64,000 bases of DNA from Dehalococcoidia bacterium (lineage in GTDB: Bacteria > Chloroflexota > Dehalococcoidia > GIF9 > AB-539-J10). The stretch is from NCBI GenBank assembly GCA_034431195.1, contig DAOUDP010000017.1, forward strand, positions 195,051-259,050, written 5' to 3'. Numbering within the stretch: position 1 is the first letter of the stretch; the number at the start of each line of letters is the position of its first letter. Shown here piece after piece: positions 9,220 to 36,577 of this stretch. The notes under the pieces were generated by a model, which had not been told where the DNA came from, searched no databases, and worked only from the letters and a program-made list of their open reading frames with translations. A program made the translations under genes and the position numbers.

Positions 9220-9409
9220 TTCGACTGCGGCAATTCCACAACTATACAGCTAGATATACTTGGAGCATCCAGATATATTGCATCCTAACCGAGCTTCTTT
9301 GTCAAGTGGATACAACGTTGATTTGGTCTTACGAAATTCATTCTTTGTTCTAACTTCAAGCCTCATTGCACAATATCGCCGGGTAACACTGTTGTATAAT
9401 ATCTGTGAT

Positions 9410-10495
9410 ATGCCTGGCTCAGCGCGAAGGACCGGGATTGCCAATCTACCGCTGCATTATGGCAAGGTGCCTCCGTGGCTGTTTGGACGGATGTCTCAGC
9501 TTGCTCGGGAGATTGCCATTGTCATCGTTGATGAGTTTAGTGTTGAAGAGATGCTTCGCCGCCTTTCCGACCCTTTCTGGTTTCAAGCCTTTGGCTGTGT
9601 TCTAGGCTATGACTGGCATTCCAGCGGTGTTACCACAACCGTCTGCGGTGCCCTGAAAGAAGGGATGAGAGGATTGGAAAAAGAACTCGGCTTGTTCGTT
9701 GCCGGCGGCAAAGGCAGGACTTCTCGAAAGACTCCTGCTGAAATAGAAAACTCTGGGCATCTGCTAAAGGTAAATCCATCACCTCTGGTTTATGCCAGCC
9801 GAATGTCAGCTAAAGTGGATAATTCAGCCCTTCAGGATGGTTATCAGCTCTATCACCACACTTTCTTCTTCACCAAAGGCGGCTCCTGGGCAGTTATTCA
9901 GCAGGGCATGAATGAAATCAACCGCTATGCTCGGCGATACCACTGGCTGGGGGAGAAAGTTACCGATTTTGTTTGCGAGCCTGAGTCTGCTATCTGCTCT
10001 CAGGGTAGAGGTGAGGCGCTGAATCTGGTGGCTTCAGAAAGCACAAAGGCAAGGAATGTCATCGCTCAGGTTGCCACTGAGGAGAAACCAGAAAAAATTG
10101 TGATTCAGTTGAGTAAATTGAAAACGTTAAACCTGCCCCGGCGACCTTACATCACGCTGGAGGACATCCACCCTGACAGACTGAGCAAGATTTTCACCAT
10201 TGCCTACGAGCATCAGCCGCAAGATTTCGAATCACTGCTCGGGCTTGAAGGTGTAGGACCAAAGACGCTTCGCGCCCTCAGCCTTATCTCGGAGCTGGTG
10301 TACAATACACCAGTCAGTCTGCGTGACCCGGCAAGTTATAGCTTTGCCCACGGCGGTAAGGATGGTCATCCCTATCCTGTGGATAGAAAAACTTACGATA
10401 GCAGCATCCAGTTTCTGGCTCGAGCTCTGGACAAAGCCAGAATCGGGGACAAAGAGAAGCTTGAAGCCTTGCGTCGTCTGAAGGCATGGCAGTGA
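9410..10495 (+). CDS. DUF763-like protein with C-terminal helix-hairpin-helix motif; probable start at ATG 9410 rather than listed 9260
   Basis: RTGIANLPLHYGKVPPWLF N-terminus resembles archaeal/bacterial DUF763 proteins; LEGVGPKTLRALSL HhH motif; TATAAT at 9395-9400 lies 9 nt upstream of ATG 9410. Confidence 0.55.
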   Translation: MPGSARRTGIANLPLHYGKVPPWLFGRMSQLAREIAIVIVDEFSVEEMLRRLSDPFWFQAFGCVLGYDWHSSGVTTTVCGALKEGMRGLEKELGLFVAGGKGRTSRKTPAEIENSGHLLKVNPSPLVYASRMSAKVDNSALQDGYQLYHHTFFFTKGGSWAVIQQGMNEINRYARRYHWLGEKVTDFVCEPESAICSQGRGEALNLVASESTKARNVIAQVATEEKPEKIVIQLSKLKTLNLPRRPYITLEDIHPDRLSKIFTIAYEHQPQDFESLLGLEGVGPKTLRALSLISELVYNTPVSLRDPASYSFAHGGKDGHPYPVDRKTYDSSIQFLARALDKARIGDKEKLEALRRLKAWQ

Positions 10496-10537: not shown

Positions 10538-11878
10538 ATGACCGATTTCAATATTGCACCTTATGTGTCCCACATCGAGGCTAACCGTTCGGTTAAGGAC
10601 GCCGTGATGGAGAAGCTACAGGAGCGTCGCCCTCCCTATCGCGTCTCGGTAACTGACTTAACCAATTTGAAGCAAGCTTATTTCCGCAGAAAGCATCCCG
10701 AGATAGTCCCCCCTCTGGAGAAACAGCAGCTCATGTGGAAGGGGACCGGGTTTCACAAGCTTTTTGGCTTCGCTGTATCCAGCGAGGAATATCTGGAGCA
10801 ATTTGTGGAGACTGAAGGTGTGGTGGGTAAAATTGACATCTACGAAAATGTTCCCGTGGAGGTTAAAACGACTTCAGCATTGGCGAAGGGAAAAAGCTTA
10901 CTCCAGCAAAGACCGACTTACATTGAGCAAGTAGGCATGTATTGTGCTATGGTCAATGTTGGGGATGGAAAGATTGTCATTTACGAACGGCAGGGTGCAG
11001 AGGAATCGGGTGTGGTTCCTCTTACCGCCTATCATGTCACCTTTCCCAGCTTGGAAGCAGTTCGGGAAGAGATGCGTCGCAGGCGAGACTTATTGATTCA
11101 GGCGCTCATCTCCAACGACCCCAGCAACTTGCCTGTATGTGACTGGTTTGGCAGAGGATGCGACTATTCTGCAGTGTGCGACTGCGGCACCAGCTCGGTG
11201 CCCCCATCACACAAAATCGCTGAGTTAGCGGAGCAGGTTCAAATTGATGTGGCTACCCGCCAGCAACTGCTGGATAAACTTGGCAAGCCAAAGCCATCGC
11301 AGCTATTTCGCACTACCGACCTCGTCTTTCCCCGCAAGGCATATTTCGAGCGTCGCAAATCCTTGGAGACCATTTCAGAGGAGGAGGCAGCTGAGGAAAA
11401 AGGAGAATCCCTCCGCTCTATGGAGGAGGCGGGCTTTGTGGGCGCCCTCAAAGGGCTCATCCAGTTTGGTTCTCCCGGGGAAGTGGAAAATATTCCGATT
11501 CAGCATGCTTCGCTCAGCGACCTGGTTCGGCTCCGCCAGGGTTTGCCCACTATGGTGCGCATCCCTAAGTTCCAGTCACTTGTGGAACGGGGGCGGCTGC
11601 CTTCAGCATTTCCACACTATTTTTATCGCCTGGGCTTTGATTGTGCGTTAATAGACCATCCTAAAGGCAGACTATTTCTTTACTATGCTAATATCAGGGA
11701 TGAGAATGCCAAGATGATGGTCTATGATGTTTCCTTCAGAAACCTGGGTGCTATAAAGGCTGAGGCGATACGCCGCATAGAGCTTCTGGAAAAGGCGACT
11801 TCAGTAGCCCAGCTTCCGAGATGTCCTTCGTGGATGTGCCGCTATTGTTCCTACAGAGACGAATGCGGCGAGATTTAG
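10538..11878 (+). CDS. RecB/Cas4-like PD-(D/E)XK nuclease with two homologous domains, each ending in a 4-Cys cluster
   Basis: Domain 1 has GKIDIY (D), EVK (ExK), QVGMY (QxxxY) and C-x5-C-x5-C-x-C; domain 2 aligns with domain 1 but lacks D/ExK and ends C-x4-C-x2-C-x5-C. Confidence 0.6.
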   Translation: MTDFNIAPYVSHIEANRSVKDAVMEKLQERRPPYRVSVTDLTNLKQAYFRRKHPEIVPPLEKQQLMWKGTGFHKLFGFAVSSEEYLEQFVETEGVVGKIDIYENVPVEVKTTSALAKGKSLLQQRPTYIEQVGMYCAMVNVGDGKIVIYERQGAEESGVVPLTAYHVTFPSLEAVREEMRRRRDLLIQALISNDPSNLPVCDWFGRGCDYSAVCDCGTSSVPPSHKIAELAEQVQIDVATRQQLLDKLGKPKPSQLFRTTDLVFPRKAYFERRKSLETISEEEAAEEKGESLRSMEEAGFVGALKGLIQFGSPGEVENIPIQHASLSDLVRLRQGLPTMVRIPKFQSLVERGRLPSAFPHYFYRLGFDCALIDHPKGRLFLYYANIRDENAKMMVYDVSFRNLGAIKAEAIRRIELLEKATSVAQLPRCPSWMCRYCSYRDECGEI

Positions 11879-11988: not shown

Positions 11989-12825
11989 GTGAGACTAAAA
12001 GTTGGGGTGAGAAGTAATATGATCGAGGTCAACCAGTTTGAGGAAGTTGTTCAAATCAAGATGAGCCGTGAGTTTGAAGGGCAACCGCTTTACTGGGTTG
12101 CGGCGTACCTTGTTGACGGGCTCCTTATTGATACCGGCTGTAAGCATACGGATGAGGAGTTGGTCGAATTTCTGGATGGGCAGAATCTCAAATTCGCCGT
12201 AAACACGCATTATCACGAAGACCATATCGGTGCCAATCATCTTTTGAAGCAGAAATTTGGCATCGAGATATTTGCACCTCGTGAATCAGTTCCTCTCATC
12301 AACCAGGTTCCCAAGTTGTATCCATATCAGGAGATGGTTTGGGGTTATCCGGAGCCCACTGAAGTGGATTGTTTGACTGAGAGAGTAGAAACTGGTCATT
12401 TTCACTTTGATGTGGTAGAGACTCCCGGGCATTGTAACGGACACGTGGCATTAATAGAGCCTGAAAAAGGGTGGTGCTTTTCGGCGGACCTTTTTATTTC
12501 GGAAAAGCCAAGGGTTATCCGCCCAGAGGAGGATATCACGGGCATTACAAGGTCAATGAAAAAGCTCGTTGCTCTCGAGACCGACAGACTTATTCTATTT
12601 ACCTCCATGGGCAATGTGGTACAGGATGGCCGCAATGCCCTTCAAACATGTATAGAATACTTCCAGGACTTGTCTCGAAGAGCAAAGCAGCTTGAAAAAA
12701 AGGGTCTCTCGGTTGTTGCTATTCGGGATGAAGTTTTCGGGAGAGAAAGTTCCCTTGCTGGTCTTACAGATGGACAGTTCTCGTCTGAAAACCTGGTCCG
12801 AGCTGCTCTTCGTGCACAGATATGA
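11989..12825 (+). CDS. MBL-fold metallo-hydrolase
   Basis: HYHEDHIGANH zinc-binding motif, downstream H and D ligands (TPGHCNGH, FSADLF); alternative start at ATG 12019. Confidence 0.8.
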   Translation: MRLKVGVRSNMIEVNQFEEVVQIKMSREFEGQPLYWVAAYLVDGLLIDTGCKHTDEELVEFLDGQNLKFAVNTHYHEDHIGANHLLKQKFGIEIFAPRESVPLINQVPKLYPYQEMVWGYPEPTEVDCLTERVETGHFHFDVVETPGHCNGHVALIEPEKGWCFSADLFISEKPRVIRPEEDITGITRSMKKLVALETDRLILFTSMGNVVQDGRNALQTCIEYFQDLSRRAKQLEKKGLSVVAIRDEVFGRESSLAGLTDGQFSSENLVRAALRAQI

Positions 12826-12942: not shown

Positions 12943-14037
12943 GTGAAACTTAAAAAGGTTGCCAAATGGACTTTGCTAAGTCTAGTAATTATCCTTGTAT
13001 CCCTTTCAGCCTGGGGATGGCTGGTCACCTATCATCCCGCTGAGGTGCAATCAGAGCCGATAATTTGCTCTGACCAGACACCTATTTTGAGTCCAGGGCA
13101 GAAACTGAAGGTGTTAAATTGGAATGTGCAGTTTATGGCAGGCAAGAATTATGTCTTTTTCTATGATTTACCAGATGGTTCTGGGCCTGATGAAAGACCC
13201 TCACCAGAAGATATTACTAAGACCTTCAGTGAAGTCTCCCGCATTATCCAGGATGAAAAGCCCGACATTATTTTGTTGCAAGAGGTTGATGCTGGAGCGA
13301 AACGCACAGATTATGAAGACCAACTGGCTCGCCTATTATCGTTACTACCTGAGGAATATAGCTGCTATACTTCTGCATTCGAGTGGAAAGCCTCTTTTGT
13401 TCCTCACCCACGGATTATGGGAGCTGTGGGGCTGAAAATAGCTATTATATCTAAATATAGGATAACACAGGCTACTCGCTATCAATTGCCTTTAATGCCC
13501 CAACCAGTAACTCGCGAATTTAACTTAAAGCGGGCTGTTTTAGAAGTCCATATGCCTGTAGAAAATGCTACAAATTTCGTAGTGTTAAACACGCATTTGG
13601 AAGCTTTTGCGCAGGGTACCGACACCCTGGAAAAACAAGTTAATCAAGTAGAATCTATTTTAGAAAACCTGACCCAAGAGGGCTATCCCTGGATTATAGG
13701 AGGCGATTTCAATTCGCTACCTCCTGGCAAAGCCTATGGTCTATTACAGGAAGAACAAAAGAAATATTATAGCCAGAAAACGGAAATAGAGTCCTTATTT
13801 GAAAAATACCAGGCTGTGCCCAGCTTGCCAGAAGTTAATAGTCCCGACTGTGAACAATGGTTCACGCACTTTCCCAACGACCCTGGCGTAGGAAAGCCCG
13901 ATAGGACTATTGATTATATCTTCCTAGCGAATAACGTTACCTTAGAAAAGCATTGTGTAAGGCAGTATGATACCCTGACAATATCAGACCATCTGCCTGT
14001 GCTGGCTGAGTTTGAACTACCTTCTTCCCCTGAATAA
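12943..14037 (+). CDS. endonuclease/exonuclease/phosphatase (EEP) family protein with N-terminal membrane anchor or signal
   Basis: Hydrophobic N-terminus (WTLLSLVIILVSLSAWGWLV), LNWNVQF, ILLQEVD, GGDFN, SDHLPV motifs of the DNase I-like EEP fold. Confidence 0.8.
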   Translation: MKLKKVAKWTLLSLVIILVSLSAWGWLVTYHPAEVQSEPIICSDQTPILSPGQKLKVLNWNVQFMAGKNYVFFYDLPDGSGPDERPSPEDITKTFSEVSRIIQDEKPDIILLQEVDAGAKRTDYEDQLARLLSLLPEEYSCYTSAFEWKASFVPHPRIMGAVGLKIAIISKYRITQATRYQLPLMPQPVTREFNLKRAVLEVHMPVENATNFVVLNTHLEAFAQGTDTLEKQVNQVESILENLTQEGYPWIIGGDFNSLPPGKAYGLLQEEQKKYYSQKTEIESLFEKYQAVPSLPEVNSPDCEQWFTHFPNDPGVGKPDRTIDYIFLANNVTLEKHCVRQYDTLTISDHLPVLAEFELPSSPE

Positions 14038-14952: not shown

Positions 14953-15834
14953 TCAACAGCGATTGAGATTGCTTCGCTTCGCTCGCAATGACAATGGGGG
15001 CTTGCGATGACGATGGGGACTCGTAATGACATTTTCCAGGGAAAAGAACTCTATGGCATTCCTGGTAGTGTACTCAGCCACTGCAGCCTCGTCAATTCTC
15101 TTGAGTTGAGCCACAGCGCCGAGACTTCTGGTTATGTCACCAGGAGCGGAACGATATCTTGTCCCCCGGCCATAATATACCGGACAATCGGTTTCCAGAA
15201 GCAACTTATCCATTGGCGTTTCCTTAACCGCCCTCCTATGCTCTTCATGATATTCAGCGGCAGGAGTGGCGGAGACATAATAGCCGCCGTTAATTATATC
15301 CCTGAGGACACTGGAAAAGCCAGTAAACCAGTGAAAAACGGCTTTAGCTATGCCAGCATCTTGGACTAATTGTAGCCCATCTCTCCAGGCATACCTGGTG
15401 TGAAGGCTCACCGGCTTGTCGTATTTTTTAGCTAACCGTAAAAAGCGTGCTAACACTTCTTTTTGGAATTCTTTGGATGCTCTTTTTACCACCCTCTTGT
15501 CGTAATCCAGTCCTATCTCACCGATAGCAATTGCTTGGGAGATATTCTGCTTGATGAATTCCAGTTCACCATTGACCTGGGAAGAATTGAGTTCGCCTAA
15601 TTGCCACGGGTGCAATCCCAGTGCCGGGAAAACGAAGGAGGGATATTTCTGAGAAATCTCCAGCGTTTTTATATTCGAGCGATAATCTGAGCCCACGGCT
15701 ATGATGGCGACGATGCCCCTTTCCCGGGCATTATCAAGTGTAGAATCGAGATTTTGTAATTCATCCAGGTGAGCGTGAGTATCGATAAGGCTATACAACT
15801 TCAGGTTGCTTTTCAGGGCGTGTTTGCTCGGCAC
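14953..15834 (-). CDS. tatD: TatD-family metal-dependent hydrolase; C-terminal ~25 aa encoded by a repeat element; alternative TTG start near 15798
   Basis: IDTHAHLD, EIGLDY and ETDCP motifs; terminal ...SPHRHRKPPLSLRAKRSNLNRC is translated from the repeat at 14961-15035. Confidence 0.83.
   Translation of the reverse strand: MPSKHALKSNLKLYSLIDTHAHLDELQNLDSTLDNARERGIVAIIAVGSDYRSNIKTLEISQKYPSFVFPALGLHPWQLGELNSSQVNGELEFIKQNISQAIAIGEIGLDYDKRVVKRASKEFQKEVLARFLRLAKKYDKPVSLHTRYAWRDGLQLVQDAGIAKAVFHWFTGFSSVLRDIINGGYYVSATPAAEYHEEHRRAVKETPMDKLLLETDCPVYYGRGTRYRSAPGDITRSLGAVAQLKRIDEAAVAEYTTRNAIEFFSLENVITSPHRHRKPPLSLRAKRSNLNRC
14961..15035. repeat. 75-bp composite repeat (three ~19-bp GCTCGCAATGACA-like units ending AATGACATTTT), inserted in-frame at the 3' end of tatD
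   Basis: gattgagattgcttcgcttcgctcgcaatgacaatgggggcttgcgatgacgatggggactcgtaatgacatttt; near-identical architecture to 36291-36366. Confidence 0.7.
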
Positions 15835-16241: not shown

Positions 16242-16585
16242 CTTGTCATTGCGAGGAGCGCCCCTCTTGTCGTTGCCGGGAAATCCTAAACTCAAATTAG
16301 TAGCTATCAGCTATCAGCCATTAGCTAACTGCTGACTGCTGATTACTGACTGCTTTTTCATATTGTTTAGTGTTTCGGATTTGGGATTTAGAGTTTTCTT
16401 TGTAAGGGATTGCCGCGCTTCGCTCGCAATGACAGTAAGAAAGGCTCGCAATGACACTAAGAAGGGCTCGAAATGATAATCTCCTTATTGTCACCCTGAG
16501 CGATAGCGAAGGGTCTGAAGGAGATTCTTCGGTCGCTGTGCTTCCTCAGAATGACAGTAAAAAGGGGCTCGCAATTACAGTGAAA
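16242..16585. mobile_element. MITE-like ~345-bp repeat element with GTCATTGCGAGG... / ...GCTCGCAATGAC inverted termini and internal tandem ~22-bp units
   Basis: Shares start (cttgtcattgcgaggagNgcccctcttgtcNttgccgggaaatcctaaactcaaa), internal tagctatcagc/gactgctttttcat blocks and terminal gctcgcaatgac with the copy at 25920-26155; no ORF. Confidence 0.6.
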
Positions 16586-35459: not shown

Positions 35460-36577
35460 TTTCTCTTTGCCTTCCTTATCTCACTAACCAACCCCTTGGT
35501 GGCTTTTTTGATATCTGGCTTGCTTAACACGGCACTAATCACAGCAACACAATCAGCACCAGCAGCAATTACCTCACCAACATTGCTTTGATCAATGCCA
35601 CCGATAGCCACCACTGGTGAGGATACTGCCTCCCTCACCTGCTTGAGAATATCCAGGCCGACGACAATAGCCCCTTCCTTGCTCTCCGTAGGGAACATCG
35701 AGCCCACAGAAATGTAATCCGCCCCTTCATCCCCCGCCTCAATTGCCCGTGATACCGTGGTAACCGAGCTACCAATTATCTTAGCCATCGGCAATTCTCT
35801 CCTGGCAACATGAACCGGCAGATCTCCGTAGCCAATATGGAGACCATCAGCATCGACTGCCAGTGCTAAATCCAAATAGTCATTGATGATGAATAAAATC
35901 CCTGCCTTCAGGCATAGCTCCTTAAGCCCCTCAGCAACGGGCAATAGTTCCACCATACTCCTTTGCTTATCACGAAGCTGGATAACCTTGGCCCCTCCCT
36001 GAATAACCTCTCGCGCTACCTCCAATTCATCCCTGCCACCCAGAACTTGCCTATCAACGATAACATAAAGGCCAGTCAACTCCTTCAGCTTATCCTGCCG
36101 CGTTAGTCTGGAAACCATCTTTTTTTCCACCGAATAAAGGCAGAACCTCACCTTCTCAAACCTGGTAGCATCCAGCTTGGAGCTCAGTTCATCCAGCTTG
36201 GCCAACTCCTCCAATACTCGCAGAGATTCCTCCACCCTGTTGGCATTGGCTTCGACCAGGCTGGCTAAATCAGGGTAGGACTGCTTGTTGAGATTGCTTC
36301 GCCTTCGGCTCGCAATGACAGAGGGAGGGCTCGCAACGACAGAGGGGCAGCTGTCAATGACATTTTCTCTGCCGACATCGTGTTCCGAGTCCCGTTCCTC
36401 AAGAAGAATTATGCCCAGAGACTCACCGACTTCAGCAAGACTGTGACGCGTGGTTCTTAACTGCTGGCTTAGTGTAGCGTCATTAAGAACGAAGCGGGCA
36501 ACATCTTCCAGAACACGCAGCCCCTCAGCAGAACGATTGAGGTTGGCATCAACTATACGAAGCAGTTGGTGAGGCAC
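35447..36577 (-). CDS. thiE: thiamine-phosphate synthase (ThiE) with ~160-aa N-terminal extension containing an in-frame repeat insertion
   Basis: C-terminal ~215 aa carries ThiE TIM-barrel motifs (LYVIVD, IQLRDK, GADYISVG, AIGGI); N-terminal extension has two helical repeats (DANLNRSAEGLRVLEDVARF / EANANRVEESLRVLEELAKL) split by repeat-encoded ENVIDSCPSVVASPPSVIASRRRSNLNK. Confidence 0.8.
   Translation of the reverse strand: MPHQLLRIVDANLNRSAEGLRVLEDVARFVLNDATLSQQLRTTRHSLAEVGESLGIILLEERDSEHDVGRENVIDSCPSVVASPPSVIASRRRSNLNKQSYPDLASLVEANANRVEESLRVLEELAKLDELSSKLDATRFEKVRFCLYSVEKKMVSRLTRQDKLKELTGLYVIVDRQVLGGRDELEVAREVIQGGAKVIQLRDKQRSMVELLPVAEGLKELCLKAGILFIINDYLDLALAVDADGLHIGYGDLPVHVARRELPMAKIIGSSVTTVSRAIEAGDEGADYISVGSMFPTESKEGAIVVGLDILKQVREAVSSPVVAIGGIDQSNVGEVIAAGADCVAVISAVLSKPDIKKATKGLVSEIRKAKRKCQG
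36291..36366. repeat. 76-bp composite repeat inserted in-frame inside thiE
   Basis: gagattgcttcgccttcggctcgcaatgacagagggagggctcgcaacgacagaggggcagctgtcaatgacatttt; same architecture as 14961-15035. Confidence 0.7.

Follow-up and report, generated by a model that had tools for sequence, protein, structure and literature searches.

A two-domain nuclease gene

A 64,000-nucleotide stretch of the genome of a Dehalococcoidia bacterium (assembly GCA_034431195.1, contig DAOUDP010000017.1, positions 195,051 to 259,050 of the forward strand; hereafter the window, position 1 being its first letter) carries an open reading frame (ORF) at 10538-11878 that encodes two Cas4-like nuclease domains in a single chain. 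The two domains are tandem copies of one another, and each ends in a cluster of four Cys residues, but the catalytic residues of the RecB/Cas4 nucleases are found in the first copy (half 1) and not in the second (half 2). The features of the gene are listed below. The residue counts, here and throughout, refer to the query and 86 diverse full-length representatives that are 24-57% identical to it (n = 87), and pLDDT is the predicted local distance difference test of the AlphaFold (AF2) model.

10538..11878, + strand: whole ORF, two Cas4-like nuclease domains, 446 amino acids plus stop (ATG start; ORF list)
10559..11188, + strand: N-terminal Cas4-like PD-(D/E)XK domain, predicted to be catalytically competent, residues ~8-217 (Pfam PDDEXK_1, hhalign, AF2, Foldseek)
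10754..10942, + strand: active-site span with H73 (10754), E87 (10796), D100 (10835), E108 (10859), K110 (10865), Q131 (10928) and Y135 (10940) (family conservation; codon positions checked)
11138..11185, + strand: Cys cluster 1, C201-x6-C208-x5-C214-x-C216 (C208, C214 and C216 in 87/87; C201 in 86/87)
11189..11221, + strand: inter-domain linker, residues ~218-228 (between the aligned units; overlaps an AF2 span without regular secondary structure)
11222..11875, + strand: C-terminal domain copy, predicted to be catalytically inactivated, residues ~229-446 (hhalign, AF2 element order, column counts)
11366..11428, + strand: acidic low-confidence insert in half 2, residues 277-297, ...SEEEAAEEKGES... 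(pLDDT <50; length varies among homologues)
11822..11872, + strand: Cys cluster 2, C429-x4-C434-x2-C437-x5-C443, then E445 (C429, C437 and C443 in 86/87)

Internal duplication of a Cas4-like domain

The internal tandem duplication of the Cas4-like domain is confirmed by both pairwise and profile comparison of the two halves of the protein. Aligned by BLASTP, residues 1-225 and 226-446 are 26% identical across a stretch of ~215 residues (E = 1e-14), and the Smith-Waterman score of the halves, 148, lies far beyond the values obtained when the second half was shuffled 1000 times (31.3 ± 4.9, maximum 55; z = 23.7). Separate profiles of half 1 and half 2, taken from a family alignment of 123 sequences, match each other over 205 columns with an hhalign probability of 99.75% (E = 1.9e-27). 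No similarity between the halves was found at the DNA level, and the duplication is therefore old.

The initial annotation, made from the sequence of the stretch, had already described this gene as a tandem duplication, with copies at residues ~60-225 and ~300-446. Both of the pairings that it quoted recur in the BLASTP alignment, but its bounds were too narrow: in the hhalign alignment the repeated unit comprises ~215 residues and spans residues ~8-217 and ~229-446. Its further statements, that only the first copy retains the catalytic residues and that each copy terminates in a four-Cys cluster (C201/C208/C214/C216 and C429/C434/C437/C443), agree with the present analysis and, like the duplication itself, hold across the family.

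Active-site residues of the two halves

Half 1 contains H73, E87, D100, E108, K110, Q131 and Y135, all of which are invariant or nearly so among the 87 sequences; the residues of the catalytic D...ExK core and of the QxxxY motif (D100, E108, K110, Q131 and Y135) are present in 87/87. When the halves are placed in the register on which hhalign and the AF2 model agree, these five residues stand opposite V330, M339, R341, R364 and D368 of half 2, substitutions with which half 2 could not hold the catalytic metal by the usual means. This register is also in agreement with the predicted β-strands, which span residues 85-92, 95-102 and 105-112 in half 1 and residues 316-320, 329-333 and 336-341 in half 2. 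The local register of the BLAST alignment around the half-2 catalytic positions differs from it, and leads to the same conclusion. Throughout the family, half 2 has hydrophobic or variable residues where half 1 has the two metal-binding carboxylates and QxxxY.

Predicted structure and database matches

The final AlphaFold model was calculated from 123 sequences, with the archaeal Thermoplasmata clade added, and has a pLDDT of 88.3 and a predicted template modelling score (pTM) of 0.87; an earlier model, calculated from 19 close homologues, had a pLDDT of 56 and was too poor to use. Helices and strands follow one another in the same order in both halves of the final model. Residues 193-225 have no regular secondary structure, and the acidic insert (residues 277-297) is the sole disordered segment. 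The pTM of the model suggests that the two halves pack against each other in a defined way.

A Foldseek search of the PDB with this model gave the Cas4 protein SSO0001 of Sulfolobus solfataricus (4ic1) as the best match, with E = 1.5e-5 and a probability of 1.00 over ~211-215 columns, and a TM-score of 0.54-0.60 when normalised to the target (the Foldseek output does not specify which half was aligned). This is followed by human MGME1, lambda exonuclease and RecE, each matched over the length of one domain. Normalised to the query, the TM-scores of the PDB matches are at most 0.30. Matches in the viral structure library are to single-domain Cas4-like nucleases only, and Foldseek found no entry covering both domains in either the PDB or the viral library.

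Sequence searches recover the first domain with modest scores. The Pfam model PDDEXK_1 (PF12705) matches residues 90-215 with 28.1 bits, above its gathering cut-off of 22, while half 2 alone reaches 11.8 bits (E 0.23), which is below threshold. There is no above-threshold Pfam or PDB sequence match for half 2 alone, and as a consequence databases annotate one weak PDDEXK_1 domain or nothing at all; homologues carry the public names ‘hypothetical’ or ‘PD-(D/E)XK nuclease family protein’. The Pfam family Cas_Cas4 (PF01930) does not match the 446-residue protein, and the NCBIfam cas4 equivalog (TIGR00372) matches half 2 only, with 18.7-19.1 bits against a cut-off of 65. A PDB sequence search with the single protein returned chance matches only (cereblon, E ~0.3), and the family profile matches the SSO0001 sequence at no better than E = 0.15. 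No helicase domain was detected in the Pfam/NCBIfam scan, the 446 residues being filled by the two nuclease-like domains.

The cysteine clusters

All four candidate ligands of each half lie within the C-terminal ~16 residues of the domain. The arrangement thus departs from the canonical one, in which one N-terminal Cys is combined with a C-terminal CX2CX5C motif: the N-terminal ligand is absent from both halves, where N43 and F264 occupy its place, and a fourth C-terminal Cys is found instead. When SSO0001 is aligned to the family profile, its N-terminal Cys is placed in an insertion. The half-2 cluster of the present protein is CX4CX2CX5C, with C434, C437 and C443 forming the CX2CX5C element, a spacing that is the iron-sulfur (Fe-S) signature of Cas4, AddB and Dna2; half 1, with C-x6-C-x5-C-x-C, does not have this element. 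The position of the fourth half-2 ligand varies within the family: most members have a Cys two residues after C443 (the +2 position), some have Asp or Glu there, and the lineage of the window has the internal Cys (C434) instead.

A separate metal centre is predicted for each domain, and the CX2CX5C signature and the relationship to SSO0001, which is a [4Fe-4S] protein, make an Fe-S cluster the most likely kind. The alternative that both Cys4 motifs are structural zinc sites is unlikely, although it survives better than any of the others discussed below. Four ligands crowded into ~16 residues at the C-terminus of each domain resemble a zinc knuckle, neither half has the N-terminal Cys by which canonical Cas4 proteins staple the cluster (N43 and F264 are found there instead), and one half-2 sequence gives a marginal match to a CCCH zinc finger. 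It is less easily reconciled with the retention of CX2CX5C in single-domain relatives of the family as well as in half 2 of this protein, with the replacement of the fourth ligand by Asp or Glu in some members (such ligands are known for Fe-S clusters) or with the [4Fe-4S] centre of SSO0001, the closest structural relative.

Constraint on the C-terminal half

Mean pairwise identity is 32.9% for half 1 and 25.9% for half 2, which is the less conserved of the two in 94% of sequence pairs. By this measure half 2 evolves faster than half 1, yet it remains constrained. It retains P265-R266 of the DLxxPRxAYF helix motif, located N-terminally in the domain, and P337, and both R266 and P337 are nearly invariant. 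Also retained are the motif-I Glu, E315 (equivalent to E87 of half 1 and conserved at ≥90% in alignment A4), and a basic residue at the position of the catalytic Lys (R/K341, in 79/87).

These same residues, together with the clear purifying selection acting on half 2, speak for the alternative that the second domain is alive, with a remodelled site or some other activity such as 5'-phosphate or DNA-end binding or non-canonical catalysis, so that the protein would be a dual-function enzyme like AddAB. We regard this as quite improbable, given the hydrophobic or variable residues that family members have in place of the carboxylates and QxxxY, and given that no alternative invariant acidic pair was found in half 2 in the 87-member alignment. 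A non-catalytic role is what we infer for half 2 from its pattern of conservation.

Comparison with known nucleases

Compared with Cas4 SSO0001 and the PF12705 nucleases, the protein has the same domain fold (Foldseek E = 1.5e-5), the RecB motifs H, E, D, ExK and QxxxY in half 1 and a C-terminal Cys cluster, with CX2CX5C in half 2. It differs in that its single chain contains two domains, of which one is predicted to be inactive, and in lacking the N-terminal cluster-ligand Cys, which is replaced by a fourth C-terminal Cys. It is Cas4-like but not a Cas4, because it fails the equivalog threshold (~19 bits against 65), has no CRISPR or cas context and does not have the canonical Cys arrangement.

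The initial annotation had called the one-chain, pseudo-dimeric architecture unusual. This needs tempering, since the pairing of an active with an inactive domain of the PD-(D/E)XK type recurs, for example in RecC, XPF-ERCC1, Sau3AI and the archaeal tRNA splicing endonucleases, and since ZomB also has two Cas4-like domains. ZomB is the only published polypeptide with two Cas4-like domains that was found in a literature search, and 4Fe-4S clusters are predicted for it. By its published description it differs from the present protein: ZomB has an N-terminal helicase, is ATP-dependent and is borne on a mobile element, and neither of its copies is described as inactive in its paper, unlike half 2 here.

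In RecBCD and AddAB/AdnAB a RecB-type nuclease domain is likewise paired with a second, related domain, but the paired domains reside on separate, large, helicase-containing subunits, whereas here two motor-less domains are fused. In RecC, a DNA strand is guided by a nuclease-like domain that is itself dead, and the cluster of the Fe-S nuclease domain of AddB is needed to bind DNA ends. The same logic of a duplicated nuclease unit, one copy of which loses catalysis and is kept as a DNA-binding or scaffold partner, is found in Sau3AI, in the archaeal tRNA splicing endonucleases with two tandem repeats, in XPF-ERCC1 and in Mus81-Eme1; these belong to other families, are not known to have an Fe-S cluster and are not Cas4-like. 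That a nuclease unit duplicates and one copy then loses its activity is a familiar theme, which the present case extends rather than changes.

Distribution and origin of the family

A word-indexed search gave 592 homologues at E ≤ 1e-3, and an exhaustive search gave 371 cluster representatives at 50% identity. Nearly all complete homologues are 435-490 residues long and match the query from end to end. A scan of the GTDB species genomes located the nuclease in metagenome-assembled genomes of the Dehalococcoidia/Dehalococcoidales (61-88% identity), in Thermoplasmata (30-42%), in the Armatimonadetes lineage CSP1-3 (~41%) and in SAR202 (32%). No description of the tandem-domain family was found in the literature. 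The phylogenomic survey of Cas4 assigns PF12705 to a ‘Cas4-like’ group and makes no mention of Cas4-like domains in tandem (Hudaiberdiev et al., 2017; PMC5704561).

When all halves were compared with one another by BLAST, half-1 sequences matched other half-1 sequences first (the median rank of the first cross-type match being 82 of ~86), and half-2 sequences mostly matched other half-2 sequences first (median rank 54). This ordering argues for one duplication that took place before the family diversified. Metagenomes also contain rare single-domain relatives, 224-234 residues long (P0224, P0232, P0252, P0253, P0265 and L090 4998..5693), which are closer in sequence to both halves than any other relatives, scoring 96-148 bits against the half-1 profile and 75-114 bits against the half-2 profile. 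They have H, E, D, ExK and QxxxY and an all-C-terminal CX4CX2CX5C cluster like that of half 2 of this protein; they consist of one domain with an intact active site, in contrast to the two-domain form with one inactive domain. On these sequence features, the single-domain relatives look like the pre-duplication form.

At least one of these relatives (4998-5693 of L090) directly follows a D5_N/DUF5906 primase-helicase gene, the two genes together spanning L090 2673-5693, on an archaeal contig that also encodes TFIIB. The locus has the look of an integrated mobile element, possibly the source of the ancestral domain. The single-domain form has no match in IMG/VR.

In most of the high-GC Thermoplasmata homologues (such as P0140, P0150, P0167 and P0184; L007 6001-7398), Cys cluster 2 is followed by a short basic tail that is conserved and ends the protein (...GRSQR, ...RTQR or ...RSNR); this tail is absent from the Dehalococcoidia proteins.

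Genomic context

The gene immediately upstream of the nuclease in the window is the following.

9410..10495, + strand (listed as 9260-10495, TTG start): DUF763 gene with a helix-hairpin-helix motif (Pfam DUF763, E = 1e-134)

The ATG at 9410 is the likely true start, as homologues have 361 residues, an ATG is present at this position and a TATAAT-like hexamer lies just upstream of it; the TTG at 9260 probably over-extends the protein by 50 codons. The helix-hairpin-helix motif lies at residues 320-339. No solved relative of the DUF763 protein was found by sequence, nor was a description of it found in the literature. Among the Dehalococcoidia it shows 78-91% identity (full-length matches) and is more conserved than the nuclease (61-88%).

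DUF763 lies upstream of the nuclease in most of the Dehalococcoidia loci for which an upstream flank is available, and is missing beside some copies; it was not detected within a flank of ~5-6 kb near the Thermoplasmata or CSP1-3 copies. On the downstream side, the Dehalococcoidia loci have cvpA, thioredoxin and tatD genes, a stable neighbourhood in which cvpA is in most cases much closer to the nuclease than in the window, often immediately after it. In the window, a metallo-beta-lactamase-fold gene (11989-12825, + strand) and an endonuclease/exonuclease/phosphatase-family gene (12943-14037, + strand) lie between the nuclease and cvpA; among the loci whose neighbours were compared, the former recurs only in the two closest relatives (L010 and L055) and the latter in no other locus. 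The Thermoplasmata neighbours of the nuclease are metabolic genes, and the other lineages have no common neighbour. An assignment of function from operon structure was rejected, because DUF763 was detected near no Thermoplasmata or CSP1-3 copy within these flanks and the other neighbours are lineage-specific or inconsistent.

Several further observations were made at these loci. A small Thermoplasmata/Methanobacteriota subgroup, 42% identical to the query, has a 516-residue DEAD/DEAH-type superfamily 2 (SF2) helicase gene, divergently oriented and just upstream of the nuclease (L072 3207-4754, - strand, and L073); this arrangement was seen only in that subgroup. A TnpB/Cas12f-like gene (OrfB_IS605, Cas12f1-like_TNB; L009 12329-13371) lies ~5 kb from the Thermoplasmata homologue P0401 and is probably unrelated. 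The window also contains a short dispersed repeat, GCTCGCAATGACA..., with 2-3 tandem copies at several sites (14982-15031, 16422-16476 and 36307-36362). This repeat reaches into the 3' end of the tatD ORF, where it is translated as ...SLRAKRSNLNRC, and a similar translation forms a spurious N-terminal extension (MLRFARNDG...) in the homologue P0036.

In a more ambitious proposal, the dead C-terminal domain with its own Fe-S cluster would act as a sensor of DNA ends or damage that gates the N-terminal domain and would form, with DUF763, a repair module in the Dehalococcoidia. We consider this decidedly improbable. If it were true, the protein would be a motor-less, single-chain DNA-end processing enzyme. 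Separately, a Cys cluster kept for so long in a non-catalytic copy would amount to a natural experiment, by which the role of the cluster in this class of nucleases would prove independent of catalysis.

The two-domain form is a stand-alone chromosomal gene rather than a Cas4 of a CRISPR system or of a mobile element. This follows from the stable neighbourhoods, from the absence of any CRISPR-like tandem array (or Rfam match) in the window, from the lack of a match to the protein in phage and plasmid collections, and from IMG/VR, where a single viral contig matches, over half 1 only, with no two-domain match. No cas domain was found among the called neighbours in loci L001-L009, a check that did not extend to the other ORFs of the window. 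That the protein nonetheless belongs to a defence system or a mobile element, as a solo or mobile-element Cas4 and not a housekeeping protein, is very unlikely: the PADLOC Cas4 models give weak matches (E ~2e-4), a single-domain relative adjoins the D5-like primase-helicase of the element-like archaeal locus and an AbiEi-type gene lies near one CSP1-3-type copy, but the two-domain form is flanked by stable housekeeping genes across many species-level genomes, besides being absent from the phage and plasmid collections, unmatched as a two-domain protein in IMG/VR and unaccompanied by a CRISPR array in the window. Finally, the notion that the self-similarity reflects chance, biased composition or an assembly artefact can be dismissed in view of the alignment statistics given above (z = 23.7 against shuffles; E = 1e-14 by BLASTP and 1.9e-27 by hhalign) and of the occurrence of the 446-residue architecture in hundreds of separate assemblies, both bacterial and archaeal.

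Proposed mechanism and implications

The reading that we favour, with a probability of roughly 0.75, is that of a single-chain pseudo-heterodimer in which an active N-terminal domain is joined to a dead C-terminal domain serving in DNA binding or as a scaffold, each with its own metal centre and the whole with a housekeeping role. An ancestral single-domain Cas4-like nuclease, with a fold of the PF12705 type and a C-terminal four-Cys cluster, would have undergone a tandem duplication that left both copies in a single chain. With all of the RecB/Cas4 catalytic residues in place, the N-terminal copy is predicted to act as a DNA nuclease dependent on Mg2+/Mn2+, whose substrate would most likely be single-stranded DNA ends or flaps, as for Cas4, AddB and MGME1. 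The C-terminal copy, having lost both metal-binding carboxylates and QxxxY, is predicted to be catalytically dead, although it keeps the fold, the DLxxPRxAYF helix motif, the basic residue at the Lys position, E315 and the Cys cluster. It probably packs on the active domain as a silent pseudo-dimer partner, and would supply DNA binding or scaffolding. Each domain would hold one metal centre, most likely Fe-S and of a non-canonical kind, with all four ligands C-terminal. The cellular role is probably in housekeeping DNA repair or recombination, and not in CRISPR adaptation or mobile-element defence. The suggestion of the initial annotation that the protein is a fused heterodimer with a structural second half is thereby supported, and fits the faster but constrained evolution of half 2, its kept motifs, the predicted packing of the halves and the existence of single-domain relatives.

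Several points weigh against this reading. The retention of E315 and of R/K341 makes some residual or altered activity of half 2 possible. In about a quarter of the diverse members, half 2 lacks both the +2 Cys and the internal Cys (about half of these have Asp or Glu at +2), and with so variable a fourth ligand some lineages may have a weaker second metal site. Zinc and Fe-S sites are indistinguishable at the level of sequence, and the inter-domain interface and the Cys geometry are putative. In addition, there is no operon partner that is conserved across lineages, and no pathway is indicated by the neighbouring genes.

The family is real: distinct, widespread (371 clusters at 50%) and unannotated, with a pair of nuclease domains, one predicted to be active and one silent, and two putative metal clusters. 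The point of interest is that a dead copy would have kept its metal cluster over a long evolutionary span. Such a copy would make the family well suited to studying what Fe-S clusters contribute, apart from catalysis, in nucleases of the Cas4, AddB and Dna2 type. For the organisms themselves, the protein is a candidate DNA-repair nuclease in lineages that have no cultured, genetically studied members.

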